Shown here: piece by piece, positions 24,612 through 56,195 of the stretch
Numbering within the stretch: position 1 is the stretch's first letter
How the letters are laid out: every line of letters starts with the position of its first letter
From: Candidatus Multivoradales bacterium
GTDB taxonomy: Bacteria; Acidobacteriota; Thermoanaerobaculia; Multivoradales; JAHEKO01
Direction of reading: 5' to 3'
DNA length: 64,000 nt
Assembly: GCA_965223155.1 (NCBI GenBank)
Contig: CBDCVR010000013.1
Coordinates: forward strand, 352,001 to 416,000
Notes under the pieces: model-generated
What the model was told of the DNA's origin: nothing
Database searches by the model: none
Seen by the model: only the letters and a program-made list of their open reading frames with translations
Position numbers and translations under genes: made by a program

Positions 24612-24680
24612 GATGTTGGCTGTTCCTCCTGCTTGGGCTGCTGGGCCTGCAAGGCCCTGAATCGCCTGCCCGTTTCGATC

Positions 24681-33413: not shown

Positions 33414-35225
33414 CTAGTGGCTTCCCAAGATCCCCCGCTTCGCTCTCTCGACGGCAGTCGCGATTGGAGCGGACGCGACCTCGGCTCGCAGGATTGGGCG
33501 TAGGTGCTCCAGATAGTCGTCCAGGATGGAAGCTTCCAACGAGGCTTCGCGGATGAAGGCCGAGCGCAGGTCGGCGTCACTGAAATCGAAATGCGTCAGG
33601 ATGTCGACGAGGGCGAGGGCGAACTGTGAGGCGGCGTCGTCCCGGGTGCCGAGCCGCCAGGTCCAATCGGTCTCGGCGACGAAGTCGCCGATCAGGGTCA
33701 AGAGCGTCCGGCTGCGCCAGTTGGTGGATCGAAAGCTGCTCAAGAGCTGCTGGTAGCCGTTCTCCACGTTCTGGGAAATGTAGAAGAGCGCCACCGCCGC
33801 CACGAGCTCGTTGCGGAGCAGCGACTCGGCGTCGAGATCGCGCCACCTGTAGTAGTCGTAGGTGGTGGTCTGCCGGTTTCCGCTGCTGTCGAGATAGGAG
33901 AACTGCCTGCGGGTCACGCCCTCCCCCGCCGCGTCCCGCGCTTGGGTCCCGGCTTCGGCCATGTAGAGCCAACCGTTCCCGCTCAGATCGTCGATTCTGC
34001 GGCGCCCGACGCTGGGGGCGAAGTGAAAGCCGACGAAGTTGGCAACACCTTCTTTGAAGACCGCGTGGGAGTCGGGAAGGATCTCCCGAAAGTAGTGGGT
34101 GCCGTCGGGTCCGTAGGCGGGGCCGTAGTGCGCGGTGTCCCAACCCGTTCGATCGAGGGTGTGGACGGTCTCGTGAATCAAGGTCGCGTGCCAGTCGGGG
34201 ACGGTCCGTCCTCCCCCGCTCAGATCCTCGGCGTGGAGCTCACCCAGGACCACCTTGCCCAGCGCGCTCGAACCTCGCCCTTCGCGCCAGGCGCACGGCC
34301 ACACCCCCAGCCGTCCCGTGCCCCGCAATTCGGACCGGCAGAGCCGGTAGTGGTTCCCCGTCGCCTGGGTGAGATCCTGGGTGAAGTCGTTCACCAAGTA
34401 GAACCGCAGCCGGGGCAGACCGCCGATAGTCTGCATCAGGCGGGCGACCTCGGTGCCGACGCGTCCGGCGGTGATCTCTTCATAGGTGCGAATCAGCGTT
34501 GGACAGTCCTGGGCGCAAAGCTCGCGCAGCCGCGCGGCGCTGCCGGCCAGCCCGATGCTTCCCCAGACCCCTTCGGCGGCTCCGGAGGGGGTCGGCAGAC
34601 GGGGATCCACCAGCACGACCTCGATGGGTCCCCGCGCGCCACCGCCCGCAGACTGCGGCGAGGCCAAGGAAGCGATTCGGCTCCGCCAGTCGTCTTCGGA
34701 AAAGGCGGCTCCCGAGGCACCCTCGAGGAAGTAGCGCTCGCCCACGGCCACTGCGCTGGTTCTGGAACCCTCGCCCGTCCGGGACGGAACGACCACCGTT
34801 TGCTCCCCGAGACTCCGGACGCTGTCCCCGAGCAAGCGGCGCAGCTCGGCCGAGAGCGGGCGATCATCGACCAGGAAGACATAGTTGACGCCGGCAAGCG
34901 AGACCCGCTCGGATCCGCCGGGACCACAGGCTCCCGCTCCCAAAGCCTCCCGCGCAAGGGCCAGCCCGGTCAGATCCGCCTCGCAGAACGGGGTGGCGGT
35001 CCGGGTCGCGCCCTCGTCGCAGACCTGCCGCCCGGCCGTCAAGTCTTGGCCGCAGACCGCCGGATACCCAGCCGGAAGGTAGTAGACCGTAGTCGCGGCC
35101 TCGATCGGTGGCGCCGCGACCACGAGCGAGACAGTCACCAAGGCCCGGCCGACGAATCGCCTGGCGGCGGTCTCGGTTCCGCGGGACGTCCTCCTGCCTT
35201 CACGCCTTGCCACGAACGCTCGCAT
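33414..35225 (-). CDS. Secreted cargo-type protein C1: shared Cys4 N-domain + HExxH zinc metalloprotease domain
   Basis: Signal peptide (PIEA), TTVYYLP...C-x10-C-x11-C-x18-C...YVFLVDDR; LIHETVH...FKEGVANF (gluzincin-like third ligand); TGATG coupling to C2. Confidence 0.8.
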   Translation of the reverse strand: MRAFVARREGRRTSRGTETAARRFVGRALVTVSLVVAAPPIEAATTVYYLPAGYPAVCGQDLTAGRQVCDEGATRTATPFCEADLTGLALAREALGAGACGPGGSERVSLAGVNYVFLVDDRPLSAELRRLLGDSVRSLGEQTVVVPSRTGEGSRTSAVAVGERYFLEGASGAAFSEDDWRSRIASLASPQSAGGGARGPIEVVLVDPRLPTPSGAAEGVWGSIGLAGSAARLRELCAQDCPTLIRTYEEITAGRVGTEVARLMQTIGGLPRLRFYLVNDFTQDLTQATGNHYRLCRSELRGTGRLGVWPCAWREGRGSSALGKVVLGELHAEDLSGGGRTVPDWHATLIHETVHTLDRTGWDTAHYGPAYGPDGTHYFREILPDSHAVFKEGVANFVGFHFAPSVGRRRIDDLSGNGWLYMAEAGTQARDAAGEGVTRRQFSYLDSSGNRQTTTYDYYRWRDLDAESLLRNELVAAVALFYISQNVENGYQQLLSSFRSTNWRSRTLLTLIGDFVAETDWTWRLGTRDDAASQFALALVDILTHFDFSDADLRSAFIREASLEASILDDYLEHLRPILRAEVASAPIATAVERAKRGILGSH

Positions 35226-36493
35226 CAGAAGGGTCGCTCGCATGAGCAACCGCGGCAGAAGGGCTCGAACTCCCGGCAGTATCGCTCGTTGAGGTCCTGC
35301 CGCAGGCGGGCTCGGTTCTCCGGGATTCGGAGCATGCGGCGTTGTCCGATCGGCATGTCGCGCCAGCGGCTGAGAGCCGCTTCGCACCCGGCGCGATTCC
35401 TCTCCATGAGCTCCGGAGCGCCACAACCTTGCGGGTGTCGCGGTCGGTAGATGGGCAGGAGCTGATCGTTCAGCCTCGCCGGGCCGGTAAGCCATGTCAT
35501 GGTGACTCCGTAGCCCTCGAGATAGGCCATGTGAAGCATGCCTCGCCGCGCGCCTTCTTCGCCGGTCGCCGGCTCCGGCGGGGTCCCCGCGCCCCGTACC
35601 ATGCCCTCGCCGGTATCCTGGATGACCGGCTCCGGATCGGGTCGCTCCGCGGGAGGCACCCGCTCCTCGTCATCGTCGAAATCCACCGTCTCACCCAGGG
35701 TGAAGCCGAGTCGATCGATCCGGTCGTCGCGATCGGGTTGGCGATACAAGACGCCCCGCAGCGGCACCGTGCCCGCGGACGACTCTCCATGAATGCGGCG
35801 AAGGCTGGCCTCGACCCTGTCGATGAGCTCGCGCATCCGGGCCCTTCCGTCGCTCCGGCACAGCATGATCGGGCACAGGGCGTCTTCGACGGTTCGGCGG
35901 AAGGTCGCGTAGTCCGAGTGGTACGGCACGTCCAGCTCCTCGACATCGACCTCCAGATCCAAGAGGCTGGCGATTCGGGTGAGCCAGGCGGTCCGGTTCG
36001 GCGATCGTTCGCGGTAGAAGCGCTCGCCCACGAAGATGCCCTGGACGCGTGCCGAGGGGCCCGTCCTGGACGGCACCACCATCGGACCGGCGCCCAGGTC
36101 GCGCACCGCGTCGCCCAGCCTGCGAGTGAGCGCCGCCGACAGGGTTCGATCGTCCACCAGGAACACGTATTCGATGCCCGGGATCTGGACTCGCTCCGAC
36201 TCGGCCGGGCAGGCCGGGAGGCCCAAGGCCTCGCGTGCCAGGTCGAGGCCGGTAAGTCCCGAGCGGCAGAAGAACCGGGCACGGTTGGTGACGCCCTCTT
36301 GGCACACCGGGACCCCCCGGGAGATGTCGTAACCGCAGACCTCAGGATAGTTCTGAGGCAGGTAGTACACGGTCGTCGCGACCAGGGGACCCGACGCCCC
36401 AAGTACGGCCAGGCACGCGAAACCGAGCGTCGCGCCTAGCCTTACGGCCCCGCGAAGGGTCCGGGCCGGCAACCGTGAATCAAGATTCGGCAT
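35225..36493 (-). CDS. Secreted cargo-type protein C2: shared Cys4 N-domain + unknown C-terminal domains
   Basis: GGAGG RBS, signal peptide, TTVYYLP...C4...YVFLVDDR...VGERF; Cys-rich C-terminus. Confidence 0.8.
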   Translation of the reverse strand: MPNLDSRLPARTLRGAVRLGATLGFACLAVLGASGPLVATTVYYLPQNYPEVCGYDISRGVPVCQEGVTNRARFFCRSGLTGLDLAREALGLPACPAESERVQIPGIEYVFLVDDRTLSAALTRRLGDAVRDLGAGPMVVPSRTGPSARVQGIFVGERFYRERSPNRTAWLTRIASLLDLEVDVEELDVPYHSDYATFRRTVEDALCPIMLCRSDGRARMRELIDRVEASLRRIHGESSAGTVPLRGVLYRQPDRDDRIDRLGFTLGETVDFDDDEERVPPAERPDPEPVIQDTGEGMVRGAGTPPEPATGEEGARRGMLHMAYLEGYGVTMTWLTGPARLNDQLLPIYRPRHPQGCGAPELMERNRAGCEAALSRWRDMPIGQRRMLRIPENRARLRQDLNERYCREFEPFCRGCSCERPF

Positions 36494-36512
36494 TCTTCCT
36501 CCCTCTCCGTCC

Positions 36513-38111: not shown

Positions 38112-38113
38112 TT

Positions 38114-39535: not shown

Positions 39536-40592
39536 CGTCGTAGATGGCTATCGATTCCACGGAGCCCCCCTCGGTGTTCCGCATGACCGTGACGGGAACG
39601 TAGGTCTCCTCGCCGTTGCCGACGCCGGCGTCCGAGAGCTCGCCGTGGAGTCGCCTCAGGCCGTCGCTCCGACGGGCCGCGGAGTACGCGGCCGAACGCT
39701 CGATGCCGCCGATCTCGCTGGCGAGCGCTCGTCCGACCGCATCGCGCCACCGAACGAAGCTTCGATGAAACGGCACTGGCACCTCGCGTTCCTCGAACGT
39801 GAAGCTGGAAGCCTCGGGGCTCGGTGTCGGGGTCGTCAGGCCCTCGCCGGTCTCGGTCGGTGCCTCCCGTCGCCGGTCTCCGTCACCTCCTCCCCGGCCA
39901 GGGCTAGGCACAGACAACCCACCGGCGCCCTCCGCCGGCCTCTCCGCAGAGCCGCCTCCGGCCGCAGGGGTCGAATCGCCGTCGCCGCGGTTCTCGGGCA
40001 AGGCGCCAGGACCAACGACCCGGCCCAGCTCGCCCCCCTGCGTCAACAGGCCGCGGATCCGTTCTTGCCAGGCCGAAGTCGGAATCGCACCGCCCCCTTG
40101 CCCTCCGACGCGGGACATCTGCTCCCCGACCACGAGAGTGCGCCTGGATCGGCTGAGGGTATCGGTGAAGACCCGAAACGAGGGCTCGATCATGCGCCGG
40201 CCACCCTGGGAAACGAGCGTCGGACCGAGGGCTTCCAGAAGCGCTGAGGAAGGATTCGAGTCGTCCACGAGAAGGACCAACTCGACGGTCGATTCCGCGA
40301 GAGAGACCAGAAACGGATTGGGCATGCTGTTGCCCTGACAGTCTCGAAGTCCCAAGGCACTGCGCGCCGAATCGAGACCGGAGAGGCCGAGACGGCAGAA
40401 CGCCTCGACTTGACCGGTCACCCCATCGGGACATCGCGCCCGATCCTCGGTGAGAGACCAGGCGCAGACGGCTGGAAACCGCCCGGGCACGAAGATCACG
40501 TCCACGCCGGCGACCGCCGGCAGCGGGGCGAAGACGCCCGCCAAGCCCAAGAGGCTCGCGATCACGAGCTTCCGAAGGCCGGTCCTACTCAA
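39522..40592 (-). CDS. Secreted cargo-type protein C5: shared Cys4 N-domain, Gly-rich linker, short C-domain
   Basis: TTG start overlapping P1 stop, signal peptide (PAVA), VIFVP...C4...LVLLVDD...VGE. Confidence 0.75.
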   Translation of the reverse strand: MSRTGLRKLVIASLLGLAGVFAPLPAVAGVDVIFVPGRFPAVCAWSLTEDRARCPDGVTGQVEAFCRLGLSGLDSARSALGLRDCQGNSMPNPFLVSLAESTVELVLLVDDSNPSSALLEALGPTLVSQGGRRMIEPSFRVFTDTLSRSRRTLVVGEQMSRVGGQGGGAIPTSAWQERIRGLLTQGGELGRVVGPGALPENRGDGDSTPAAGGGSAERPAEGAGGLSVPSPGRGGGDGDRRREAPTETGEGLTTPTPSPEASSFTFEEREVPVPFHRSFVRWRDAVGRALASEIGGIERSAAYSAARRSDGLRRLHGELSDAGVGNGEETYVPVTVMRNTEGGSVESIAIYDDEGS

Positions 40593-42801
40593 CCGGTGTC
40601 CCCATCGACACGTTGTCCACCACGACCATGTCGGTCAGCCCGCCCCGTAACCGGTCTGTCTTGACCTGGGTGTTGTCATCCAACGTCCAGACGATCTCGT
40701 ACTCGAATTCGGGGCGCTCATCCGCCGGATGGGCGTACTTGACCATCTCGGAAAACCTCGGCACCTCGGCGAACTCGCTCAGCTCGACTCGTTCGATTCG
40801 CTGTTTGCCGAAGAGATCGAAGTAGAGGGTGATGGTCGTCGAGATCACGTTCTGGCTGTCGAGACGGTCGGACCGGGCCAGGAGGCGCAGATTGCGGTAG
40901 CCATGAGGCGGCGACAGCGCCAGGCTGGAGTCGGACGATGTCTGCCGCCCGGAGCGCCATTCGGCGCCGCCGAAGAGGCTCCACACGACTTCGTAGTCGT
41001 ACGCGAGCCATTCGTCGCCACGATCCCCCTGAAGCATGGGATAGACCAGGAGCTTGCGCACGCCCTGCTCCAAGCGCCGGAACTGGTCGCGATCGAAGCG
41101 CGTGGTGCGGACGGTCGTCTCGCCGTTGCGGTGCCTCTTGGTGAGGGTCAACTCGACGTGATTCACGAACTGGCCGAAATCCGAGGCATCCAGGCCGTCC
41201 AGGGTGACCACCACCCGGCGCTCGCGCATGGCGGGGTCGTCCCAGTTGACCACCAGGTAGTGATCCGGGTCGTTGAACAACCGGCGCAGGCCGCCCATCG
41301 GGAAGTCGAAGGGCAGGTTCTGGGTGTCGTAGGTGGCCTTCTTCCAGTTGAAGTTGAACTCGCCCGAGCGCTGGTACTCCTTTTGCCGGTACGCGGCGAG
41401 CAAGGAAAACGTGGGCTCTTCCTGGATGTTGGCCGGCGTCGCCTCGCGGCCGCCGCCCCCCTGGCCGGGACGGGTGCCGGACTGGCCGGCGCCGCTTCCC
41501 GAAGAGCCTTCCGGGGTCGCTCCGGGCGTCTGTCCCCTGGTACCTCCCTCGCCTGTTTCGCCGCCTCCCGCGGCAGCCGTCGAGCCATCCGCGGTTCGGG
41601 TCCCGGACTCGCTTCCTTCTCCACTGCCGGCCCCGGCGCCGGCGGTCGCCGTCTCCGAGCTGGAGCTGCCCTGCCCGAGCGGCAGGTGGTCCAGGATGGG
41701 CAGATGGGTGACCGTCGGATCGGTGTCCGTCCGAAGCGCCCGCTCCCGGGCGATCTCTTCCCGCTCCTGGCGCTCCCGCTCTCTCTCCCGCTCGTTGGCG
41801 CGGCGGACCCGCTCCTGCTCCTCCCGCTGAAAGCGGCTGGCGCGATCGAAGTTGCTGTAGAGATTCTGGTCCGGCTGGAGGGTCGCTACGAGCTGCGGAT
41901 CGCTGTCCACCTCGAACAGCATGCGCACGACGTGCCCCTCCGCGGTTCGGATGGCCTCCTGAAGGTTCTCGCACTCTCCCTTCTGCTCGAAGGTATACGC
42001 CTTGTCGGATTCCAGCCGGCTGACGACGCGCTGTACGTCGACACCCAGGATCGGGGTCCTGAGGCCGGCCGCCATGGCCTCGTTGGCCGCGATGTTCTCG
42101 AAGCTACCGGAAAGCTCGGCGTCGCACGGGCTCCGCAGACCGACCATGTTCATGTCGAATTTGACGGCGAGCTGCCCCGAAGCCTGGCGCAGAGACTCGC
42201 GCATGATGGTCGCGCCCTCGCCGGTGAGACGGAGGTTGATGGCGGTTCGGTGTCCCTCCATGACGGGAGCCTTGCCGCCGCCGACGATCTTGGTGATGAA
42301 CTCCCCTTCGTCGTTCTGGAGGCCGGAGGAGACGAAGACCTGCCCCGACTCGTAGGTGATCGCGCCGGCCACCCGGGCGCCGGGGACCTGGCGGCGGAGC
42401 TCCTGCTCGGCCTGGCGCAAGGTCTCGTCGTCCACGTTGAACTCGACGGCGAAGGACACGAAGCCCTCGGCCACGGAGCGGCCCGTGCCGCCTTCGACGA
42501 AGTCCGGCTGCTCTCCGCTCGGCGTGTTCTTGACGAAAATCAGGAAGCTGAAGATCGGCTTGCCGTTGCGCATCGCGAGGCGCGGCTTGTCGGGCAGGTA
42601 GTAGAAGGTCGTGGGCTCCTTGTACTTGGGATAGAAGCGCAAGCCGCCGGCGTCGATGCCCTCGTCGAGCATCACGTCCCGCGAAGCACCCGCGGGCAGC
42701 GCCGTAAGGAGCAGCACGAGGCAGCATGCGGTCAAGGTGAGGAACCGGTGGGTTGCGGTCATTGACTCGATCGCGCGGTCGGCGGGTTTCATTGGTTGCA
42801 T
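40585..42801 (-). CDS. Secreted paralogue P1 of unnamed YYLPxxPRL family
   Basis: AAAGGAG RBS, signal peptide, TFYYLPDKPRL...GKPIFSF, GKAPVMEG, two YxYxVxW beta-sandwiches; ER-rich/Gly-rich insertion. Confidence 0.85.
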   Translation of the reverse strand: MQPMKPADRAIESMTATHRFLTLTACCLVLLLTALPAGASRDVMLDEGIDAGGLRFYPKYKEPTTFYYLPDKPRLAMRNGKPIFSFLIFVKNTPSGEQPDFVEGGTGRSVAEGFVSFAVEFNVDDETLRQAEQELRRQVPGARVAGAITYESGQVFVSSGLQNDEGEFITKIVGGGKAPVMEGHRTAINLRLTGEGATIMRESLRQASGQLAVKFDMNMVGLRSPCDAELSGSFENIAANEAMAAGLRTPILGVDVQRVVSRLESDKAYTFEQKGECENLQEAIRTAEGHVVRMLFEVDSDPQLVATLQPDQNLYSNFDRASRFQREEQERVRRANERERERERQEREEIARERALRTDTDPTVTHLPILDHLPLGQGSSSSETATAGAGAGSGEGSESGTRTADGSTAAAGGGETGEGGTRGQTPGATPEGSSGSGAGQSGTRPGQGGGGREATPANIQEEPTFSLLAAYRQKEYQRSGEFNFNWKKATYDTQNLPFDFPMGGLRRLFNDPDHYLVVNWDDPAMRERRVVVTLDGLDASDFGQFVNHVELTLTKRHRNGETTVRTTRFDRDQFRRLEQGVRKLLVYPMLQGDRGDEWLAYDYEVVWSLFGGAEWRSGRQTSSDSSLALSPPHGYRNLRLLARSDRLDSQNVISTTITLYFDLFGKQRIERVELSEFAEVPRFSEMVKYAHPADERPEFEYEIVWTLDDNTQVKTDRLRGGLTDMVVVDNVSMGTPVE

Positions 42802-42844
42802 GGAGATCTCCTTTCGGTGTCTCTCGGGTCGGTGTCTCGCGGGA

Positions 42845-44986: not shown

Positions 44987-45037
44987 CGGAGTCCTCCAGA
45001 TCGATAAGAACGAATCGGTTCGAAAAAATGACGTCAC

Positions 45038-46846
45038 TTACGAAACCTCGGGAAGCCGGTCGCAGAAGATCGTGCCCGGCTGAGCGGTGCGGCGTTCGAG
45101 ACGCACCCGCGAATCGTCTTCGAGGGTCCAGACGATTTCGTACTCGATGGTCGTCGGGTCGCTGGTGTCCACGGGAACCGGAATCGGAGTCGCCGCCCGC
45201 AGCAGCCCCTCTTCGGGGACGAGCTCCAAACGCTCGCGCCGCTTGCGGCCGAAGAAGTCGTACCAGAGAGTGATCGAAACCAGCCGAACTCCCGCCTCCT
45301 CCAACCGCTCGGCCGAGGCACGAAAGGTCACGTCTTCAAACTCGAACGGGGGTACCAGCGAGTGCGCGCGGTCGGTCGATTCGATCGGTCCGTCCGTCTT
45401 CTTCGCGCCGCCCAAGAAGGACCAGCTCACGCTGTAGCGATAGCGCTCGAAGTCCATGAGGTCGGTCTCACGGTCCCAGGAGTAGGTCACGGTCTTGGGC
45501 TCGCCGCTCGACAGTTCCTGGCCGTGAAAGAGGACTTCGCGAACCGACTCCGTCCCGGAACCGTGCAGCTTGCGCAGTTCGACGGCGACGCTGGTGACGA
45601 ACCGCCGGTAGGCTTCCTCCCAGAGTCCGTCCAGCGAGAACACGATCTCCTTGACTCGAAACTCCGGGTCGTCGGCGCGGGCGGTGCGGAAGATGCGGGG
45701 ATCTTCGGCGTACTCCTTGTACAGGCTGCCGATATTGCCGCTCAAGACGGCGGTGACCTGGTCGCTCGCCGCCTCGTTGAAGTTCACCGTGTACTCGCCC
45801 TCCCGAGCGATCTCTCTTTGCTTGAAGCCGCCCTCGAGGCTCAGGTACCAGGGGGCCTGCTGGTGGCCGGCGCCGGCGGCCATGGGCAGCAGCGAGGTGG
45901 CAAGATCGTCCAGGTTCGGAGTGTCCTCGGCGAAGACGTCCAGCGGCACCGGCTCGAAGACCTTCTTTTGCAGGATCTCGAACGTCCTCTCGTAGAGCGG
46001 CTGCATGCTCTCGAGGGTCCCCTTGCCCGAACAGTCGATAGCACCGGTCTCGCGCGCCTTGTCCCAGAAGTTTTCGTAGTCGAATCCCAGATTGATCGGC
46101 CCGTAGCCGAACTTGAAGCCAACCTCGGCTTCCACGTGCTCGTGAAACTTGTCCCAGAAGACCGAGCAACTGGCTTCGACGGGATCCCGGATCCCCGCGT
46201 AGGTGAGCTGAAAGACCATGGCGATGTCCGGCGCCGCCATGCCGAACGAATTCCTCAGGATGGTGGCGCCCTCCTTGGTGAGGTGGAGCGAGACCGCGGC
46301 CTTGTGCCCGGGCAGAAGCGGCGCCCGTCCGGTGCCGACGACCGCGTGGGAGAGCTTCCGGGTGTCGGCAGGCGGCTCGTCTTCGGGCAAGAAGGACGAG
46401 ACCAGAGCGAAGGAGCCCTCTCGAAATTGCACCGGGCCCGCCAGCACCGCGTCCTCGACGTCGTCACGCAGGGCGGCCTCGGCGGCCTCGACGTCTTCGG
46501 GCTCGGTCCCGAACTCGACCAGGAAGTGCACGATGCCGCCGCCTCCCGCTTGGGTCACGCCGCCTTCGGAGGCGACCGCCGACAGATCCCGGTAGGTCAG
46601 GAAGGAGAACTCGGGCAAACCATCCGGCCGGCGGGCCAGCCGTGGCTCGGCCGGCAGGTAGTAGAAGACCGTGCGTTCGGAAAACAGGGGCAGGCAGACG
46701 AGCGGTCCGCAGGTTCGAGCGTGGTCGAGCGCGAGCTGCTGTGCACGTGCCGGACGACTTCCGGACGCAAGAAGCCACGCCGCGCCGAGGGCCAGCGCCA
46801 GGAGGCACCCTGGAGACAGCCTGGGAAGTGATCCTCGCCGCCTCAC
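45038..46846 (-). CDS. Secreted paralogue P3 of unnamed YYLPxxPRL family
   Basis: GTGA overlap, signal peptide (ARA), FYYLPAEPRL..DGLPEFSF, GGGIVHF, GRAPLLPG. Confidence 0.85.
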   Translation of the reverse strand: MRRRGSLPRLSPGCLLALALGAAWLLASGSRPARAQQLALDHARTCGPLVCLPLFSERTVFYYLPAEPRLARRPDGLPEFSFLTYRDLSAVASEGGVTQAGGGGIVHFLVEFGTEPEDVEAAEAALRDDVEDAVLAGPVQFREGSFALVSSFLPEDEPPADTRKLSHAVVGTGRAPLLPGHKAAVSLHLTKEGATILRNSFGMAAPDIAMVFQLTYAGIRDPVEASCSVFWDKFHEHVEAEVGFKFGYGPINLGFDYENFWDKARETGAIDCSGKGTLESMQPLYERTFEILQKKVFEPVPLDVFAEDTPNLDDLATSLLPMAAGAGHQQAPWYLSLEGGFKQREIAREGEYTVNFNEAASDQVTAVLSGNIGSLYKEYAEDPRIFRTARADDPEFRVKEIVFSLDGLWEEAYRRFVTSVAVELRKLHGSGTESVREVLFHGQELSSGEPKTVTYSWDRETDLMDFERYRYSVSWSFLGGAKKTDGPIESTDRAHSLVPPFEFEDVTFRASAERLEEAGVRLVSITLWYDFFGRKRRERLELVPEEGLLRAATPIPVPVDTSDPTTIEYEIVWTLEDDSRVRLERRTAQPGTIFCDRLPEVS

Positions 46847-48744
46847 CGAGACTCCTCCACCTCGTCCGCCGCCGGTTTCAACTCGGGTTCGGGCTCAGGC
46901 TCGGGCTCCGCGGTCGGCGGTCCCGCCAGGACTACGCTCAACTCCGTGTCCTCGACCTCCGTCCAGTCGCTCGAGACATTCCGGTTGCCGTCCTGCATCC
47001 AGCGAATGCGGTAGCGAACCGGGGAGCGCTCGTCCCGGATGAAGTTGGTCTCCATGTAGTTTTCGGTCTCGCCCGGGCGGAAGCTCTTGTTCAGGAACTT
47101 GCGTCGTCCCATCAAGCGATATTCGACCGACAGCGACACTCGGCGGACTTCTTCTTCGATGAGCGAAGACTCATCCAGCTCGATGAACACCGAGACCTTG
47201 TCCTTCGGCGGCGCCAGGTCCAGGATGCCCCGGCGCGAAGGGGCGAAATCCTCGGGATCTTCGGACGGGAACGACACCGTTTGGCCTCCGCGGAAGCTCC
47301 AGATGACTCGGTACTCGTAGCTGCTGGCGTCAAGGCCCTGGAGCCCGAGCTTGGGATAGCTCAGGGTCTTCGAAAAGGTTCCGCTCTTGACCTCGTCGCG
47401 TCCGAAACGGGCCTCCCCGACGAAATCCGGTTGCTCGAGTCCCGGATAGGACTTCTTGATCTCCACCGAGGCGGAGTTGATGACCGACGAGAAGGCGTCG
47501 TAGAAGTCCGGGTCCACCTGAAACAGGATCTCCCGCCTCAAGAACTTCGAAGCTTGCGGCGACACGATCTTGAACAGCCGCTCGTCGTCTCCCCAGACCT
47601 CGAAGAAGCCGCGCATGTTCCCTGCGGTATTGAACGGCACCTGAATCGTGGTGTTCTCGGTGAAGCTCAGCGAGAACGTTCCCCGGCGGATGTCTTCGCG
47701 GCGGCGCAGGGTGTACTGGTCCTCGGTCACGAACTTGGGATTCTCGTTGCCGCCAAAGGTCTTCTGAAACCAGCTTCGCTCGGCCCGCTGCGCGACCACG
47801 TCCTCCGGAACCTTCTCCTGTTCCGGGAGCTGCGATAGCCCCTGAGTCGTGTCGAAGAGCATGTCCACGAGCTTGGTCGTGACGAGATCCATCAGGCCCC
47901 CGAGAGTCGAAGTGCCCGCGACTCCAGCGCGGCTCGTGACCGAGACGTCGATTACCCCATTGCGCTGCAGTTCGTCCATATGGTCGCGAAGCTCGCGCTT
48001 GGAATAGTTCGCCTGACGGTTCTGGACGGCAAAGAAGTGCTCGTAGACGGTGCTCAGATCGGCGAACACCCTTCCTTGGTAGCTCGGAAGAGCCGCTTCG
48101 TAGTAGGCCGTGATCGCGACCGAGATGTCCGACGTAGGGGACTTGAGGGTCGCGTCCAAGAGAGTCGTGGACTCCGGACTCAAGAGCGCCGACACCGCGG
48201 CCAGCGAACCGGGAGTCACCGGCGCCACACCGGAAGTGACCATCTGGGACCGGAAGCCCGCCACCGCACCTTCGGCGCCGGGCGCGCCGGAGCCCGAGGT
48301 CAGGGTCGAAGAGGTCACCATGAACGAGGGCTTGGGCCCTTCATAGCCCTCTTCTTCCTTCTTCACCAGGAGCGGAACCGGACCTCGGAGGCGAGCTCCG
48401 GGAACCTCCTCGTCCAGCCTCCGCTGGAGCTCTTCGATGACGTCCTCGGGCAACTGGAGGGTGAAGAGAAAGTGCAAGAGGCCGCCGCTCACGGCCTGGG
48501 TCTCGCCGACGTAGGTGACGAACGTCATCTGGGGCAGGCCGTCCTCGTGGGTCGAAACCCGCGGATACGGCGGAATGTAGAAGTAGCTCGACGGGTCGTC
48601 CTTGTCGCGCAGCAAGGTGATGCCGTTGAGGGTCAGGCGGCCCTCCTCGTAGAGAACGACTCCTTCCGCCGCCGCCGGAACCAGGAGCGCGCCGATCAGA
48701 ACGGCGCACCGGCAAGCTTGCGTGAACCAACTGCTTCGCTTCAT
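46843..48744 (-). CDS. Secreted paralogue P4 of unnamed YYLPxxPRL family
   Basis: Signal peptide (AEG), YFYIPPYPRV..DGLPQMTF, GGLLHF, GVAPVTPG; PE-repeat tail. Confidence 0.85.
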   Translation of the reverse strand: MKRSSWFTQACRCAVLIGALLVPAAAEGVVLYEEGRLTLNGITLLRDKDDPSSYFYIPPYPRVSTHEDGLPQMTFVTYVGETQAVSGGLLHFLFTLQLPEDVIEELQRRLDEEVPGARLRGPVPLLVKKEEEGYEGPKPSFMVTSSTLTSGSGAPGAEGAVAGFRSQMVTSGVAPVTPGSLAAVSALLSPESTTLLDATLKSPTSDISVAITAYYEAALPSYQGRVFADLSTVYEHFFAVQNRQANYSKRELRDHMDELQRNGVIDVSVTSRAGVAGTSTLGGLMDLVTTKLVDMLFDTTQGLSQLPEQEKVPEDVVAQRAERSWFQKTFGGNENPKFVTEDQYTLRRREDIRRGTFSLSFTENTTIQVPFNTAGNMRGFFEVWGDDERLFKIVSPQASKFLRREILFQVDPDFYDAFSSVINSASVEIKKSYPGLEQPDFVGEARFGRDEVKSGTFSKTLSYPKLGLQGLDASSYEYRVIWSFRGGQTVSFPSEDPEDFAPSRRGILDLAPPKDKVSVFIELDESSLIEEEVRRVSLSVEYRLMGRRKFLNKSFRPGETENYMETNFIRDERSPVRYRIRWMQDGNRNVSSDWTEVEDTELSVVLAGPPTAEPEPEPEPELKPAADEVEESR

Positions 48745-48793
48745 AGGGAACTTCCTCTTCCTAGATCTAGTGGATTGACGTCGGGCGATACCG

Positions 48794-50710
48794 TCATGAC
48801 GAGCCTACGGGTGCGATCGAGCCGGTCTCATCCGAACTTGTCGTGGCAAGCTGAGGCCGGAGCTCCGGGAACCGCGACAGCACCGCGTCCTCCCCCATCA
48901 TGTCCGCTGCGGCCCTGGCCTGTGCTTCGGAGCGCTCGGCGGCGTTCGTCAGGAGCTCGGCCGGCAGCGCCGCGTAGAGATAGTCGCCCCCGGTCCAGCT
49001 CCGCCAGGCGAGGGCCATGGCGCCGTGCTCTCGATGCTGGTAAATGAGGCGCATAGCGTAGCCCGCGGAATCTCGATCCACGAGCACGCGCTCGGTAACG
49101 TAGGGCTCTCCTCGGAGTCTGAGGCGCAGGGTGGCCTCGGTCTCGCGCCCGAAGCTCCAGTAGCGGATCTTGACCGTGGCCCGCGTAAACCCCGCGGCCT
49201 GGAGCTCGACAAGGTCGCCTTCGAGCTCGAGAGACCGTGGGCGTACCGGTGGCGTCAAGGTAACGCCTTGCCACGTTCCTTCCCGCCATTCGGCACGCAC
49301 CGGGTACGTGGTGCCGTCCCGCAGTGTCCACTTCACGAGGTACTCGAAGGCCGCCGACTCGGCTTCGGAACGAGGGTAGTCCAGAGATACGAGAGGGCCA
49401 TCCCGGCGCAAGACGTCCCGATCCAGGGTCTTGCTCTCCAGGAAGTCGCGCCCTCCGGCCCTGCGCTTTCGAAGAGTGATCTGAACGTGGCGGATGGCTT
49501 CGTCGAAGATCTCCTCGCCACCCAAGCTCAACAGGAAGGGGACGGTGCGGATCGAATCGAACCACTGATCGACACGGACCGTCTCCACGCATCGCGGATC
49601 CTCGCGCACGGCCTCGTACCAGGACTTGAGGTTCGCTACGAGCTGATGCTCCCGGCGCACCGGCAAGCGGACGTCCAGCCGGGTGTGTTGCGTCGGCGTC
49701 GTCACCGGCCGGCTCCTGCCTGTGGCCCAACGCGGCCGATAGCGGTCGGCAAACCGCGCTCCGGGCCGGAGCCGCTGCAGGGCCCTGTCCGCTCGGGAAA
49801 GCGTTTGCCGCCCTGGATCGATGTCGGCGACGAGTTCCAGAAAGCGCTCGAAAAAGGTGGATTCAATCTCCGCCAAGCGGTCGTCGGGAATGGCTTCGTC
49901 CCAGTGGAAGCGAATGACTCCCTGGCGAATGAGGTACCGGTACTGGCGCTCGAGCTCGACCAGGCCCGTCGTCTGCCCGGTCGGGTTTCCCCGGCAGCGT
50001 CCGAGGAGGCACGCACCACCGTAGCCGCTCAGCAGCGACTCGCCTTCCCGCTCGAGCGTTCTCCAGTCGATCGAGACCGAGCCGCGGGCCGCGGGCACCG
50101 CCAGGTCGTAGCCGAACTCCAGGATCAGCGAGAGATCGGCCAGAGTCGTGGCCCCCTCGAGGGTGGCCCGCAGGATCTGGGCTTGGTGGGAGTCCAGGCG
50201 CGCCGCCACCGCCACTCGTCCACCCGGAAGCAGGGGCGCGAATCCCCCGGTCAGGACCGCGGCCTCGGACCCTTCCGAGTCGAGCGTTCCCGAGACCAGC
50301 CGGAAGCTCCGTTCGGCCCCAGCGGCAGTCAGAGGCAGGGCCCCCAGGAGCTTGGCCCCCGGACGGTTGCGGCCCAGCAGGGCGGCAAGCTCCCCTTCTT
50401 GCGCCGGAGTCAAGCCCCAGGTCACGCGCAGGTTGAGCAGGGCTCCGGCCGCGTCTCCCTGGTCCTCGTCCGATTCAAGGACATAGGTTCGAAGCGCGAA
50501 CTCGGGCTTGCCGTCTTCGGCCACCGCGAGCCGGGGATTGGTGGGCAGATAGTAGTAGCCGTCGGAATCGGAGACCGATGCGTACGCCACGACCCGGGTG
50601 CCGTCTTCGAGCTCCGCTTCGAGGAGGCTCGCCGGCTCCAAGAGCGCGCCCGCGACGGGCGCGCTCCAGGACGCCACGAGGAGGGTCAGCAGCGCGAGAC
50701 GCTTGCTCAT
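48794..50710 (-). CDS. Secreted paralogue P5 of unnamed YYLPxxPRL family
   Basis: Signal peptide (VAG), YYYLPTNPRL..DGKPEF, TWGLT, GFAPLLPGG, FEYLVKW. Confidence 0.85.
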   Translation of the reverse strand: MSKRLALLTLLVASWSAPVAGALLEPASLLEAELEDGTRVVAYASVSDSDGYYYLPTNPRLAVAEDGKPEFALRTYVLESDEDQGDAAGALLNLRVTWGLTPAQEGELAALLGRNRPGAKLLGALPLTAAGAERSFRLVSGTLDSEGSEAAVLTGGFAPLLPGGRVAVAARLDSHQAQILRATLEGATTLADLSLILEFGYDLAVPAARGSVSIDWRTLEREGESLLSGYGGACLLGRCRGNPTGQTTGLVELERQYRYLIRQGVIRFHWDEAIPDDRLAEIESTFFERFLELVADIDPGRQTLSRADRALQRLRPGARFADRYRPRWATGRSRPVTTPTQHTRLDVRLPVRREHQLVANLKSWYEAVREDPRCVETVRVDQWFDSIRTVPFLLSLGGEEIFDEAIRHVQITLRKRRAGGRDFLESKTLDRDVLRRDGPLVSLDYPRSEAESAAFEYLVKWTLRDGTTYPVRAEWREGTWQGVTLTPPVRPRSLELEGDLVELQAAGFTRATVKIRYWSFGRETEATLRLRLRGEPYVTERVLVDRDSAGYAMRLIYQHREHGAMALAWRSWTGGDYLYAALPAELLTNAAERSEAQARAAADMMGEDAVLSRFPELRPQLATTSSDETGSIAPVGSS

Positions 50711-50731
50711 TTTGTGCACCTTGGCCGCACT

Positions 50732-51835: not shown

Positions 51836-53769
51836 TCGGCGAGCAGTCCCTCGATGGTTCCGGCCTGCAGGAAGACGAGCTCCGGGTTATAGCTGGACGG
51901 CGCAAGCCATTCGCTCGCAACTTCGTCATGGGCGGTATAGACGACCACCCGGTATTCGTAGATCGGTTCCTCGGCGTCGGACGGCGCGAACAAGGTCGCG
52001 ACCTCCCGAACCGACTCGGACCCTCGGCCGAACTCATAGCTCCGTTCGCTCAGGCTCGATCTCTCGGGATCGGGATCGAAGAAGCGCGAGCGTACCCGGA
52101 CGATGACCAGATCCAGCCCGTACTGCTCGAACAAGGCCTCGGTGTCGGCCACGCGGATGCGGACGTTGGTCTCCGGAATTGAGCCAACGCCGCCCCGCAG
52201 CGCGTCGAGAACGCCTTCCATCTCGGCGTCGCTGGGAGCGAGATCATAGTCGTACCAGGCGGCGACGGTTGCTCGGTCCTCGATCTGCGGAGAGATCTCC
52301 CGGTTCGAGATCGGGAGACTCTCTCCTGGAGCCACCACCGCCCCGCCAAGCGCGTAGCCTCGAAGCCGCAAGCGATTGCGCTCGCTCCGCAGGTACAGGA
52401 TGTGATTCAGGCGCACCGAGAAGGGATGCCCATTCTGGAACTCCGTCGTGGTTTCACCGGACCGCATCCAGGCCGCCCGCCCGTAGGCCAGATCATCGGC
52501 GAGGTTGAGGTTCGCGGTCACACCCAGCCTGCCCAAGTCATCGGACTCGTAGTAGACGTCGCCGCCCAGCCCCATGCGCTCGTTGGCAAGCGCCTCGACC
52601 AGGGACTGTCGCTCGGCCGAATCAACGCTCACCGAAAGAACGAACTCGCCTTCCTCATAGCTGAGCTGGGTGATCTCGGGCTCCTCCTCGACCAGGCGCC
52701 AGTTGAAGGCCGGCTCCAGGTCCGCGGTCAGGGGCCGCAGCTTCACGTCGGCAGCCGAGCCGCTGGGATTGCGATCCAGATAGGCCTCGAGCAGCTCGCG
52801 CAGGATCTCGAGGTCCCGCTGGGTCGTGCCGTCGGTCAGGGTCATGTTGACCAGGAAGTTCTTGCCCGACCCGTCGCTCGGCTTGCTGAAGAAATTCAGG
52901 TAGTAGCCTTCCTCATCGGTCCATTTCAGCGACCAGCGCTTGGGCTGGTAGTAGTAGACGCCGGAGTCCAAGTTCTGATCCTGGTAGACAATCGTGCTCA
53001 GATTCAGCAACCCCCGGACGTCCTCGAAGCCGAAGGCTTCGAGCTGGTCCACCAGGGGTTCGCTATAGAGCTGGATCTCGCGGCCGGCGCCCCGAGTGTT
53101 GAGGTCCCGGTTCTTCTCCTCGGACTCCTCCTTGGCTTCTTCGGGCGTCTTGAGCGTCACGGTGGCAACCTGGTGGGTGAACGCCCCCTGACCCACGAGG
53201 TCCGCGATGCCAAAACGGGCAAGGTTGTTCTTCTCCAAGTAGCCCTCGACCCGGTAGCGGCGGTAATCCGGCGGCAGGCTCGAGCGGCCGGTCACGTTCG
53301 GATTCGTGGTCGTGAAGTTGTCCTCGCGGGAGCGACTCCAGAAGCTGGTCAGGGGAAGCCGGTTCGAGCCCGTCTTGGTGGACAGATAGCCCTCGAGGCG
53401 GACGAACTGGTACCCGCTGCGTCCCTGTCCGGGCCGGCCGGCCCACACCGGGTTCGAGGTCGTAAAGTAGTCGCCCCGCGACGGACTCCACCATCGGTAC
53501 AGAGGTCGCGTGTCCTGCGGCTGCGCGGCATCGGGTGAGTGGATGTATCCCTCGACTCGAACGAATCGGTAGCCGTCCTTGGTCGCGCCAGAAGCTCCCT
53601 TCCAGCGCGGATCGCTGGTCGCGAAGTTGTCTCCTCGGGCATCGCTCCACCAGGAGTACACCGGAATCAGTCCTGCCTCCGCCGCGCCGGTGAAACTCAG
53701 CGCCAGGACGAGCAGGCCGGCAAACGTCCGGCTTTGAGTGCGACTTGGGCAGCAGTACATCCTCTTCAT
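51832..53769 (-). CDS. Secreted divergent paralogue P7 with three N-terminal DUF5648-like repeats
   Basis: ATGA overlap, signal peptide (AEA), 3x P(V/L)..(W/F)WS..R.D.F.T..P...Y....EGY, then VYQD...VYYYQP...YEYRV. Confidence 0.8.
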   Translation of the reverse strand: MKRMYCCPSRTQSRTFAGLLVLALSFTGAAEAGLIPVYSWWSDARGDNFATSDPRWKGASGATKDGYRFVRVEGYIHSPDAAQPQDTRPLYRWWSPSRGDYFTTSNPVWAGRPGQGRSGYQFVRLEGYLSTKTGSNRLPLTSFWSRSREDNFTTTNPNVTGRSSLPPDYRRYRVEGYLEKNNLARFGIADLVGQGAFTHQVATVTLKTPEEAKEESEEKNRDLNTRGAGREIQLYSEPLVDQLEAFGFEDVRGLLNLSTIVYQDQNLDSGVYYYQPKRWSLKWTDEEGYYLNFFSKPSDGSGKNFLVNMTLTDGTTQRDLEILRELLEAYLDRNPSGSAADVKLRPLTADLEPAFNWRLVEEEPEITQLSYEEGEFVLSVSVDSAERQSLVEALANERMGLGGDVYYESDDLGRLGVTANLNLADDLAYGRAAWMRSGETTTEFQNGHPFSVRLNHILYLRSERNRLRLRGYALGGAVVAPGESLPISNREISPQIEDRATVAAWYDYDLAPSDAEMEGVLDALRGGVGSIPETNVRIRVADTEALFEQYGLDLVIVRVRSRFFDPDPERSSLSERSYEFGRGSESVREVATLFAPSDAEEPIYEYRVVVYTAHDEVASEWLAPSSYNPELVFLQAGTIEGLLAE

Positions 53770-54545
53770 CCTTCCTCTTCTTGCGCCAGGATCCGGAGCA
53801 CGGCTGGTGCGCTCCGCCGGCCCTCCGCGTCCTCCACGATCACGTCCCGCACTCCAGGATTCGGGGCGAAGCCGCGGTCCAACTCGACCTCGACCAGCTC
53901 TTGGTCGATGAAGTACACCGGAAACTCGCGAAGCCCGTAGTCCGGCAACCGCGAAGTCCCGGCATGGAGATTCGCCAGAATCCAAACCTTCGAACTCTCC
54001 GAAAAGCCTTCTCCGAAGACCTCGAGGAGAAGCGCTCGGCCGGCCGGAATCGCAGCCGGCCGGATTTCCCGGATCGCCGGGCCTCCCGCGGCCGCGGTGT
54101 CAGGCTGGGTCTCCTCATCCCAGTTCCCGCCCGAGATCTCTTCCTCAGCCGGCACTGTCTCCTCCGCCCCGTCCCGGACCTCTCCGATGGTCAGAGTAAG
54201 CGCGAGTGAGCGCTCGCCGCTTGCCGCCTCGACCAGGATGGCGCGCTCCCTAGGTACTGGCGGCAGGCCCAACGGAAACTCGACAACCAGCCTCTCCGCG
54301 GAGCGTTCCGCGGGCGTCCGGCGAAGGTACCTGCCAGCCTGGCCGGCCTCGACCAAGATCACGGTGGAGCCGTCGAAGCCCGCACCGTTCAGGACCAGAG
54401 AGAAGGCCGTCCGCGCCGGAACGCTCGCGGGCTCGAGCGAAGCGAGTTCCGGACGAGCGGATTCAGTCTCAGAGCCGGAGCCGGTACCGGCGCCGGACGT
54501 CGCCACAGAAATCAGGACCGCGAGGACAAGAGCCAGTTGGCGCAT
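53766..54545 (-). CDS. Secreted protein with two IPT/TIG-like Ig domains
   Basis: Signal peptide; 2x P.(L/I)..(L/I).PA..PA.......GxGF....(V/I) with a conserved RxILVE/RDVIVE strand. Confidence 0.75.
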   Translation of the reverse strand: MRQLALVLAVLISVATSGAGTGSGSETESARPELASLEPASVPARTAFSLVLNGAGFDGSTVILVEAGQAGRYLRRTPAERSAERLVVEFPLGLPPVPRERAILVEAASGERSLALTLTIGEVRDGAEETVPAEEEISGGNWDEETQPDTAAAGGPAIREIRPAAIPAGRALLLEVFGEGFSESSKVWILANLHAGTSRLPDYGLREFPVYFIDQELVEVELDRGFAPNPGVRDVIVEDAEGRRSAPAVLRILAQEEEG

Positions 54546-54551
54546 CGGTTT

Positions 54552-56195
54552 CTAGCGAACCACCAGGGCCGCGAAGTTGGCATCGGACTTGGCTCCGGAG
54601 CGGTCGTGGCAGACCACCGAAGCGGTGAACCCTGAATAGCTCCAGCCGACCACCTTGCACAACCGGTTACTGCCACCCACGGCGGTAACCTGCACCGTCC
54701 CGCCCTTGCCACCACCCGAACCCAGGCCAGGCAAGCGAACCGAATAGGTACCGGCCCCGCTCCGCCGCACCTCGCCGCCCTGGCCGGTCGAGTTGTAGAG
54801 ATAGCTCGGCGATCGCAGCCGGTCGTACTCCGAAGCGACGTAGCCCAAACGGCCGAAGCCGGCCGGCCGCGAAGCGACGAGAATCTCGAAGCGGCCGTCG
54901 GAGCGGCCTCCAGCGGCGTTGAAACACTGCACACTCGCCTCGAGCCGGCTCGCGCTAGCGGTGCGCCAGCTCTGGAGCGAACAGTCGATCGCCCGGGACT
55001 CGCGCGCGGTTACCTGAACGTGAGTCGCGGCGGTGTGGCGAAAGTTGTCGAAGGTCACCTGATAGATGCCGGTGCTCGAGCGCCGGACGTCGACCGCGGC
55101 ACCGCCGGCCACGGCGGGACGGTACTCAGCCTGGGTAGCTCGATCGGCGTAGGCAAAGGCGGAACCACCCGCGGCGGAGCTGCGAACCAGGGCCGTGAAC
55201 CGGGAATCGGTTGGCACGCCTGTGGGCGCGAAGCAGTACACCATGAGGGAGGTCCCGCCGCTTGCCGGCAAGAATCCACCAGCGTTACACCGTTCCGGAC
55301 CGCTACCGTACGCGGTCACCTGACCGTGGAGGGCGGAACCCGAGAAGCGCTCGAAGGTGACTTGGTACCGTCCTGCGCCGATGCGCCGGACCTGGACGCC
55401 GCCGCGGGGATTGTAGGCGTAGGTCGCGCTCGGCCTGTAGCTCGGCTCGGACGCCTTCTCTGCCCAGACGTAGGCGTAGTTCGCCAGACTCGGAACCTCC
55501 GCCACCACTCCCCCGACCGTGCCAACGGTAGTGGTCGTCGTCGGAGGGCTCGTTGATCCGCCTCCTCCACTTCTCGAGCCCCCTCCCGAAACAGCCCCCG
55601 AAGGCGTGTCGCCGACCGGGATGGGGATCACGACGTCACTCGAGAGCCCGGTTTCGGCGCTCTCCAAGCCATCCTCTCGCGCCGGCTCGTCGTCTCCTTC
55701 GGTCAATGCAGTGCCAGCAGCGCCCCAGGCTCGGTTCTTGGTGAAGAACTTCTTCGCGAAGCTCCGGCCACCCCTCCGAAGCTTGATCTCGAAGCCAGCG
55801 CTGGTGATGGCTCCTTCCCCTTCGAAGGTCACCCGAACCAGAGTCGTGCCCGCGGACGTGGTGAGTGCGACCGCTTCGCTCGAAAACCCGTCCAGAGAGC
55901 GCAGGGACCGATCGATCGGCCGTGCCGTGAGCTGAACCTCGGTGGGGGCCTCGACCTCTTGATACCCGACCCGAAACGTCGCCTGAAAGGCATCGCCTTC
56001 CACTTCCTCGAACGACACGATCTCCTTGCTTCGGCCGAGGGCGTCTTCGAGGATGTCCCGGAGTTGGGCCTCACCCGCGCCGGGCCAGACCAAGGCGAGT
56101 GCCGCGGCAATCGCCGGGGCGAGTCGGGGAAACGACCGAGCGTGGCTCCGCCGCCCCCACCCCCAACAACTCGTGCATCGCATCTGCTTCCCCAT
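54552..56195 (-). CDS. Secreted protein with N-terminal Ig-like domain, Gly/Thr linker and three tandem ~95 aa beta repeats; start uncertain
   Basis: Signal peptide (AGEA); 3x VRR...G.Y.V......QVTA......C...C....G...D..F..LV. Confidence 0.8.
   Translation of the reverse strand: MGKQMRCTSCWGWGRRSHARSFPRLAPAIAAALALVWPGAGEAQLRDILEDALGRSKEIVSFEEVEGDAFQATFRVGYQEVEAPTEVQLTARPIDRSLRSLDGFSSEAVALTTSAGTTLVRVTFEGEGAITSAGFEIKLRRGGRSFAKKFFTKNRAWGAAGTALTEGDDEPAREDGLESAETGLSSDVVIPIPVGDTPSGAVSGGGSRSGGGGSTSPPTTTTTVGTVGGVVAEVPSLANYAYVWAEKASEPSYRPSATYAYNPRGGVQVRRIGAGRYQVTFERFSGSALHGQVTAYGSGPERCNAGGFLPASGGTSLMVYCFAPTGVPTDSRFTALVRSSAAGGSAFAYADRATQAEYRPAVAGGAAVDVRRSSTGIYQVTFDNFRHTAATHVQVTARESRAIDCSLQSWRTASASRLEASVQCFNAAGGRSDGRFEILVASRPAGFGRLGYVASEYDRLRSPSYLYNSTGQGGEVRRSGAGTYSVRLPGLGSGGGKGGTVQVTAVGGSNRLCKVVGWSYSGFTASVVCHDRSGAKSDANFAALVVR

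Follow-up and report, generated by a model that had tools for sequence, protein, structure and literature searches.

The window analysed here, a 64,000-nucleotide stretch of DNA from the acidobacterial Candidatus Multivoradales bacterium (assembly GCA_965223155.1, contig CBDCVR010000013.1, positions 352,001 to 416,000), contains an operon of 14 long minus-strand open reading frames (ORFs; window positions 33414-56243, to which all coordinates below refer unless another locus is named) that is dominated by two protein families, which we call P and C. The seven P genes form an array whose paralog classes and gene order recur in several phyla, and the five C genes that follow it share an N-terminal domain never found apart from such arrays in the informative loci. 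We tentatively propose that this gene set specifies an exported scaffold of several different subunits, one of them (the P7 type) surface-binding, to which one lineage has added tagged enzymes, and that no toxin injection is involved.

From the first gene to the last (A1, A2, P7 to P1, C5 to C1), the 13 junctions measure 6, -4 (ATGA), -4 (GTGA), 12, 49, -4, 0 to 51, 43, -8, -14, 2, 19 and -1 nucleotides (nt), a packing mostly between -14 and +49 nt, and the G+C content of the window is ~66% throughout. An earlier annotation made from the letters alone (hereafter the sequence-only reading) had described 14 co-oriented, tightly packed or overlapping genes with apparent signal peptides on all products; both descriptions hold, including the ATGA, GTGA and TGATG overlaps. 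Start codons were chosen directly ahead of each hydrophobic leader, and all 14 products combine an N-terminal basic stretch, a hydrophobic core (Kyte-Doolittle maxima 1.97-3.07) and a small or Ala-rich end, a signal-peptide-like pattern called by our own heuristic reading of Kyte-Doolittle values and residue pattern. The leaders end at Ala-rich sites and show, by eye, no obvious lipobox. Those of C1 (35138-35243) and C4 (39450-39535) contain RRFVG and GRRALAAL, respectively, ahead of the hydrophobic core, which resemble a twin-arginine (Tat) motif, and the other leaders look Sec-type. Export would presumably proceed through Sec for most of these proteins, perhaps through Tat for two of them, and may continue beyond the inner membrane.

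The P family and its conserved array

Five P proteins, P5 (48794-50719), P4 (46843-48744), P3 (45038-46846), P2 (42845-44986) and P1 (40585-42801), are full-length paralogs that all match one another in an all-against-all BLASTP comparison (E 1.6e-9 to 7.6e-43) and are also recovered by a hidden Markov model (HMM) of the family, P5 for example at 6.1e-148. P2, which starts at ATG 44986 or GTG 45037, has a ~140-amino acid (aa) N-terminal extension, and P1, starting at ATG 42801, carries a charged, low-complexity insert in its helical region. P6 (50732-51835) is a short paralog in which the first half of the N-domain is joined to the final Ig-like domain, and it joins the family through the P HMM (1.5e-10) and profile comparison (hhalign probability 98.9% over 182 columns). 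P7 (51832-53769) couples an N-terminal module matching Pfam DUF5648 (2.3e-5, ORF residues 108-230, three repeats) to a divergent P-like core (~330-717) that aligns with the P6-like profile (hhalign 95.3%, 295 columns) and with the last Ig-like domain of P (78.6%). Same-sized counterparts of P6 occur in 26 other loci, and counterparts of the P7 core at the same array position in 16. The sequence-only reading had counted seven paralogous P proteins; the kinship is clear by BLASTP for P1-P5, whereas P6 and the P7 core are related to them only distantly, by profile comparison. According to a preprint, DUF5648 forms a glycan-binding propeller with three blades and acts as the O-antigen receptor-binding domain of BSAP-2/3 (bioRxiv 10.1101/2025.01.06.631476).

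The architecture of the full-length proteins can be described from an AlphaFold2 (AF2) model of P3 built on an 88-sequence alignment (predicted local distance difference test, pLDDT, 87.7). It comprises a beta-rich N-domain (residues 44-395), with long beta-hairpins, interrupted at ~231-340 by a helical and poorly conserved insert, followed by two Ig/FN3-like domains (397-500 and 501-600). An earlier AF2 model of the same protein, based on a 6-sequence alignment, was discarded as poor (pLDDT 66.8); its Foldseek matches were Ig-like only. Pfam, NCBIfam and PADLOC searches (E<=0.1) returned nothing for the P or C proteins beyond DUF5648 on P7 and marginal, chance-level hits. Sequence searches of the PDB gave nothing useful for P3 (single sequence, E<=1), C1, C4 or a C-type protein from Nitrotoga, and the P profile retrieved at E<=10 a single chance-level chain (4ltb_A, E 3.1). 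In the ESM Atlas, P3 matched clusters of 'hypothetical proteins' only and its N-domain no usable named entry. By these Pfam, NCBIfam, PADLOC and PDB searches the P family maps to no characterised system, in line with the sequence-only reading, which had not recognised a named one, and a literature search likewise found no description of a P/C system, which does not prove that none is in print. A 'YYLP' motif common to P and C is no sign of homology, as hhalign of the two profiles aligned signal peptides only.

The family is large. A profile search of 1.84 billion representatives recovered 2217 clusters (50% identity) at E<=1e-3, of which 1271 remain at 1e-10 and 477 at 1e-30, labelled in their sources 'hypothetical protein' or, where a tetratricopeptide repeat (TPR) insert is present, 'tetratricopeptide repeat protein'; a hydrophobic leader is found in 186 of the 202 closer family proteins examined. 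The TPR block, present in many homologs (P0017, P0051, P0061, P0066, P0067, P0071 and others), is inserted into the helical region of the N-domain, where P1 has its charged, low-complexity insert. In P0017, the C-terminal end is formed by a caspase (Peptidase_C14) domain with an EF-hand. Among the relatives of the source genome the distribution is patchy: P genes were found in none of 24 genomes of the same taxonomic family and in three of 16 further ones from the order.

A pattern scan of one genome per species, after which the ORFs of each locus were scanned with the P HMM, yielded 34 P loci from Nitrotoga (two), Arenicella, Marinicellaceae, Wenzhouxiangellaceae, Marinagarivorans, Acidobacteria, many Desulfobacterales and their relatives, and Campylobacterales. 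Thirty of them contain 3-6 P-family ORFs, and the other four are cut by contig ends. The same order recurs, with a P7-like gene (~500 aa), a P6-like gene (~350 aa) and then three or four full-length paralogs, in the loci of Nitrotoga, Arenicella, Marinicellaceae, Wenzhouxiangellaceae, Acidobacteria, Desulfobacterales and Campylobacterales. In a midpoint-rooted FastTree phylogeny of 53 full-length P proteins from 15 loci, considered without branch support values, sequences fall into three clades by array position and not by genome: alpha, with P2 and P5; beta, with P4; and gamma, with P3 and P1. Because the tree groups proteins by position, the paralog classes most likely predate their spread across phyla and have since been kept side by side. 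With both classes and gene order retained over such distances, the P proteins therefore behave as non-redundant subunits of a single assembly, or as steps of one process, and this retention is the chief argument for that view.

The P superfamily is wider than the exported system. A tblastn search against plasmids revealed that a cultured Pararhizobium has a 900-kb plasmid with an operon of eight 'hypothetical protein' genes (L058/L059, NZ_CP119567.1 821721-838785), four of whose eight products match the P HMM (E 2.7e-24 to 1.9e-51); their conserved domain begins at residue ~4-12, so there is no leader. Of the same-order genomes with P genes, G026 and G037 (10-11 hits) have this leaderless type and G036 the secreted one. 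The leaderless arrays (L058/L059; G026; L013 and L015 in G037) comprise 4-11 paralogs of 700-1250 aa, all annotated as 'hypothetical', and that of G026 (contig C11, 92-130 kb, L060-L062) adjoins a 1001-aa protein with a subtilase domain. Leaderless P proteins have no Pfam match, and PADLOC matched none of 13 hypothetical proteins, its lone hit being a generic subtilase model on the neighbouring protease. Any mechanism for the exported arrays should eventually cover these as well. Named carriers of P genes include Candidatus Nitrotoga sp. M5 and BS and, for the leaderless branch, cultured Pararhizobium and Paracoccus strains.

The C proteins and their linkage to P arrays

Downstream of the array lie C5 (39522-40592), whose start overlaps the P1 stop by 8 nt, C4 (38114-39535), C3 (36513-38111), C2 (35225-36493) and C1 (33414-35243, starting at 35243 or 35225). 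These five proteins are linked through their N-terminal parts only (BLASTP E 1e-13 to 3e-41), namely a domain that follows the leader directly and spans ~135 residues. It has 28 invariant columns, four of them Cys, and two of these Cys persist once distant relatives are added; LVDD, PSR and VGE are further conserved motifs. Their C-terminal parts do not match one another, which bears out the constant N-domain and variable C-domain architecture of the sequence-only reading. C1 ends in a ~400-aa domain identifiable only by its HExxH motif (HETVH, ORF residue 441), C2 in a cysteine-rich part, C3 in a ~350-aa domain, C4 in a ~295-aa domain with no Pfam or PDB match, and C5 in a low-complexity linker and a short tail. 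C2-C5 have no recognisable C-terminal domain, and none of C1-C5 has a Pfam, NCBIfam or PDB-sequence match.

This N-domain is rare, and its linkage to P arrays is strict. Among the 34 loci, the C HMM detected seven ORFs in four (L018-L021), three in Nitrotoga M5, one in Nitrotoga BS, two in Arenicella and one in Marinicellaceae, all immediately after the last P gene; counting the five of the window, 12 of the 12 copies in five whole genomes stand at a P array. A metagenome scan added five C loci. In the four informative ones the C gene again follows a P array, and the fifth (L067) is a 2.8-kb contig too short to tell; as L063 and L064 nearly duplicate the Nitrotoga locus L018, the independent additions are L065 and L066. 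No copy of the domain was detected in 40 relatives of the source genome or in 399 other genomes sampled from the Nitrotoga genome's class, where only 8 candidates were scored per genome. A word-based protein search for the C N-domain and for the C1 C-terminal domain returned only the source genome's own proteins, a result of limited sensitivity, as shown by the loci that the C HMM later matched. The sequence-only reading had itself named occurrences independent of P genes as evidence that would count against it, and none appeared in the five genomes or the four informative metagenome loci. One extra, truncated copy of the domain stands at the end of contig C8 of the same assembly, a ~9.6-kb sequence 97.0-99.6% identical to window 40269-49836 (the C5 start, P1-P4 and into P5). 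This contig could reflect either a strain variant that the assembly collapsed or a true duplicate of the locus.

What the domain is attached to is best seen in the related loci. The C-terminal partner is a tyrosinase (PF00264, Pfam E ~1e-31 to 1e-34) in L018, L020, L065 and L066, and related-locus proteins of this type also have Pfam DUF7868 and PPO1_KFDV hits. Four other C proteins contain two CxxCH motifs each in C-terminal regions of ~270-370 aa, with marginal Pfam cytochrome hits. CxxCH is the attachment motif of haem c, and its pairing suggests that these may be di-haem c-type cytochromes bearing the same N-terminal tag. Such two-CxxCH proteins are encoded at L018 9959-13076, L019 12800-14125 and L021 15935-17662 (Nitrotoga, Marinicellaceae). 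The C-terminal domain of C1 is homologous to a protein encoded directly behind the L024 P array (15756-17216; 26% over 262 aa, 2.8e-13), a Wenzhouxiangellaceae locus from a metagenome-assembled genome in which the C N-domain was undetected; C1-type enzymes may therefore accompany P arrays with or without the tag. The C-terminal part of C3 has a weak relative in the Arenicella locus (L020 18986-19537, BLASTP 3.7e-4).

The sequence-only reading had taken the C proteins for polymorphic cargoes or effectors. In polymorphic toxin systems, an immunity gene reportedly lies directly downstream of each toxin gene, the C-terminal toxin families are said to be nucleases, deaminases, peptidases and pore formers, and the N-terminal trafficking domain is reportedly tied to the type V secretion system (T5SS)/TpsA, to PAAR or VgrG of the type VI system (T6SS), to the type VII system (T7SS) and the like. 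Here, no ORF fits between C genes (the C5-C4, C4-C3, C3-C2 and C2-C1 junctions measure -14, 2, 19 and -1 nt), no known trafficking-domain family is detected in the 14 proteins by Pfam or NCBIfam, and no relative of the constant domain turned up away from P loci in the genomes searched. Given this lack of room for immunity genes and the tagged tyrosinase and two-CxxCH partners, which are the identifiable ones, the C proteins are therefore better viewed as exported enzymes with a common tag than as polymorphic toxins, and the effector assignment is not upheld.

Docking of this tag on the array was also suggested by the sequence-only reading, and one P-C pair lends it weak in silico support. With mature P1, which adjoins the C genes (30-row alignment), and the C N-domain (12-row alignment) as input, complex prediction scored 0.45 (runs 0.50, 0.16 and 0.45) vs 0.01 for the best of three controls, with runs agreeing in >=48% of contacts and a partner pLDDT >=75. 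In calibration 58 of 80 solved complexes passed the mark, as did 2 of 110 mismatched pairs, and scores <=0.60 accounted for only 7 of those 80 solved complexes and for both passing mismatches. The genomic C-P linkage gives the pairing some prior, and we count the predicted P1-C contact as a small increment only. That linkage offers a concrete, testable binding hypothesis.

Interpretation and comparison with known systems

In the arrangement that we favour, the P proteins would be exported by Sec and assemble, within the envelope or extracellularly, into a hetero-oligomeric scaffold such as a fibre, lattice or coat, with a constant complement of old paralog classes as its building blocks. The P7-type subunit would bind a surface via its variable N-terminal module, here of the DUF5648 glycan-binding type, and would be joined by a short P6-type subunit and by full-length alpha, beta and gamma subunits, each with an N-domain and two Ig/FN3-like domains. 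In one sub-lineage, source genome included, the ~135-aa Cys-containing N-domain may tether enzymes to the scaffold or to its substrate, and the assembly would either present these enzymes or undergo modification by them. In relatives they would be tyrosinases and two-CxxCH proteins, and here the HExxH protein and unassigned domains. This retains part of the sequence-only proposal that the P proteins form a hetero-oligomeric pore, translocon or particle, namely the non-redundant subunits suggested by the conserved classes and order; the pore itself is left aside, as neither Pfam nor the listed structure matches showed a pore-forming or translocon fold, in searches that barely sampled the P N-domain.

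A close parallel for enzyme tethering is the cellulosome, where genes for an exported, beta-sandwich-rich scaffold likewise lie beside those of enzymes that combine one small constant module with varied catalytic parts; in our loci the constant module is never seen away from scaffold genes. The differences are substantial: Pfam detects no cohesin or dockerin family; a dockerin is a C-terminal Ca-binding module, whereas the C tag is N-terminal, ~135 aa long and Cys-containing; the scaffold would consist of five to seven separate paralogs instead of one multi-cohesin chain; and the enzymes here and in relatives are of tyrosinase, two-CxxCH and HExxH types, not glycoside hydrolases. Heteropolymeric pili with a two-domain tip adhesin (chaperone-usher, Bacteroidales type V and sortase pili) are also among the closest known systems, but neither Pfam nor NCBIfam finds usher, chaperone, lipoprotein pilin precursor or sortase families in the 14 proteins.

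Several observations weigh against such a scaffold. The fold of the P N-domain (44-395) is unmatched, the structure searches having been dominated by the Ig/FN3 domains and having barely sampled this region, so that a pore-forming or enzymatic role is conceivable. That P proteins touch one another is argued from the conservation of their genes. The operon includes no outer-membrane or anchoring component, and its genes do not tell whether the products stay in the periplasm, sit at the surface or reach the medium. Thirty of the 34 genome arrays lack a detectable C gene, which makes C an add-on of one sub-lineage, so that enzyme display cannot be the core function. At the score of the P1-C pair, false passes outnumber true ones for pairings that were not already likely. 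Tyrosine makes up 2.2-4.6% of P proteins vs 1.9% of six housekeeping proteins of the window, a slight excess that gives little support to P as a tyrosinase substrate. Finally, the leaderless branch fits poorly with a purely extracellular structural role.

A broader statement, possible but somewhat doubtful in our view, is that this operon is the first example of an unrecognised class of exported hetero-oligomeric machines found in several phyla, with a six-gene core (an A1/446-aa-type gene, described below, a P7-type gene, a P6-type gene and the three old full-length P classes) and, in one lineage, an enzyme-tagging domain of its own whose recruits would be tyrosinases, two-CxxCH haem proteins and hydrolase-like proteins. 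P arrays occur in Pseudomonadota, Desulfobacterota, Campylobacterota, Acidobacteriota and, by automatic atlas label, Bacteroidota, and the core P proteins have no assigned domain despite at least 2217 clusters. A P assembly with a dedicated enzyme tag would, if true, represent a new principle of envelope or extracellular organisation and explain a large block of 'hypothetical' genes.

Delivery of cargo, the function given to the operon by the sequence-only reading, would correspond to a multi-component pore or translocon toxin, similar to the complement membrane attack complex or to binary AB toxins, in which P7 binds a glycan, the P proteins make the pore and the C proteins enter through it by their N-domain. 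We consider this unlikely. It would account for ordered paralog sets headed by a receptor-binding subunit, for constant-N, variable-C proteins strictly linked to the array, for the long beta-hairpins and variable helical insert of the modelled N-domain and for the weak P1-C signal; the caspase-fused family member and the HExxH protein beside arrays could even point to proteolytic activation. Yet neither Pfam nor the listed structure matches, from searches that barely tested the N-domain, gave a MACPF/CDC, aerolysin, PA or other pore family, the tight C-C junctions leave out immunity genes, and the recurrent cargo (tyrosinases and two-CxxCH proteins) consists of extracytoplasmic redox enzymes, unlike known translocated toxins. 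Most arrays are devoid of a C gene as well, and the delivery function finds no support here. In binary AB toxins (anthrax PA with LF/EF, C2, iota), the common N-terminal domain of the A components docks on the B oligomer, and P7 does bear a receptor-binding-type module; however, there is no PA14 or Binary_toxB (Pfam E<=0.1) and no PA-like chain among the listed structure matches, the B-like proteins would be seven different ones, and the cargo types are not toxin-like. The Bacteroidales pore-forming toxins BSAP-2/3 share with P7 a DUF5648 module, in their case receptor (O-antigen)-binding, but they are single MACPF proteins with this module at the C-terminus, whereas P7 has no MACPF match and has it at the N-terminus.

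Nor does the operon resemble a dedicated injection apparatus. As the sequence-only reading had noticed, ATPase, sheath, tube, baseplate, secretin and TpsB components are all absent from the 14 proteins (Pfam, NCBIfam, PADLOC E<=0.1), and no component of T6SS, extracellular contractile injection systems (eCIS), type III (T3SS) or type IV (T4SS) secretion systems or contact-dependent inhibition (CDI) was found in these proteins or the scanned flanks, the part of the genome that was searched.

It is equally improbable, in our judgement, that there is no complex at all and that the P proteins are independent, duplicated exported adhesins or binding proteins, with the C N-domain acting as a pro-domain, an intramolecular chaperone or a matrix- or ligand-binding module that stands next to P merely through co-regulation of the genes. 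Ig/FN3-like C-terminal domains are typical of adhesins, P7 has a lectin-type module, the operon is without assembly machinery by Pfam, NCBIfam and PADLOC, and tyrosinases often carry removable shielding domains, of which the DUF7868 and PPO1_KFDV hits are reminiscent. Against this view, each paralog class has kept its position across phyla, whereas redundant adhesins usually turn over, C is never apart from P in the loci examined, and the overlap of stop with start codons hints that the proteins are made in a coupled manner.

By analogy with gasdermin-protease pairs, the P proteins might be latent effectors of a protease-controlled envelope stress, cell-death or defence module, activated by neighbouring proteases, as the subtilase-domain protein beside the leaderless array of G026, the Peptidase_C14 and EF-hand fusion, the many TPR inserts and the HExxH protein that follows the array here and in L024 could indicate, but this is very unlikely: PADLOC matches neither secreted nor leaderless P-type proteins (none of the 14 window proteins with the anti-phage models of PADLOC-DB 2.0), the P proteins here are exported, 600-800 aa long and of no gasdermin family by Pfam, and no protease family is found among the conserved neighbours.

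Accessory genes and genomic setting

The operon opens with two accessory genes. A1 (54552-56195; ATG at 56195, in an ORF open from 56243) encodes an exported repeat protein with only a weak Pfam match to DUF3805 (0.031), and its N-terminal part weakly resembles a 446-aa family (hhalign 72%, E 3.4e-5) that is the first or upstream gene in 22 related loci. A2 (53766-54545) is an exported protein with two Ig/TIG-like repeats that matches NCBIfam CoaZ_rpt_PGGG (choice-of-anchor Z repeat, 1.8e-10); homologs lie directly upstream of the P7-like gene in L048 (BLASTP 4e-31) and L023 (1e-20), the latter with a Pfam TIG match.

The flanking genes are ordinary, with an EamA transporter, a class-V aminotransferase and a homoserine dehydrogenase on one side and GGDEF-EAL and FIST proteins on the other. 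At both operon ends, consensus scans for promoters and terminators gave no promoter-like site and no signal exceeding shuffle expectation, the sole terminator-like site lying inside the C1 coding region. Locating the insertion site by synteny with same-genus genomes was dropped, as the flanking proteins are multi-copy there and only ~40-47% identical. Elsewhere in the window we observed, on the minus strand, a Mla-type lipid-transport operon (23151-26236; MlaE permease, ABC ATPase and MlaD-domain protein); the replicative helicase DnaB is encoded at 26268-27698. The product of 20340-22820 combines a Ser/Thr protein kinase with a long TPR region, and one related ORF occurs in locus L021, which is probably a coincidence.

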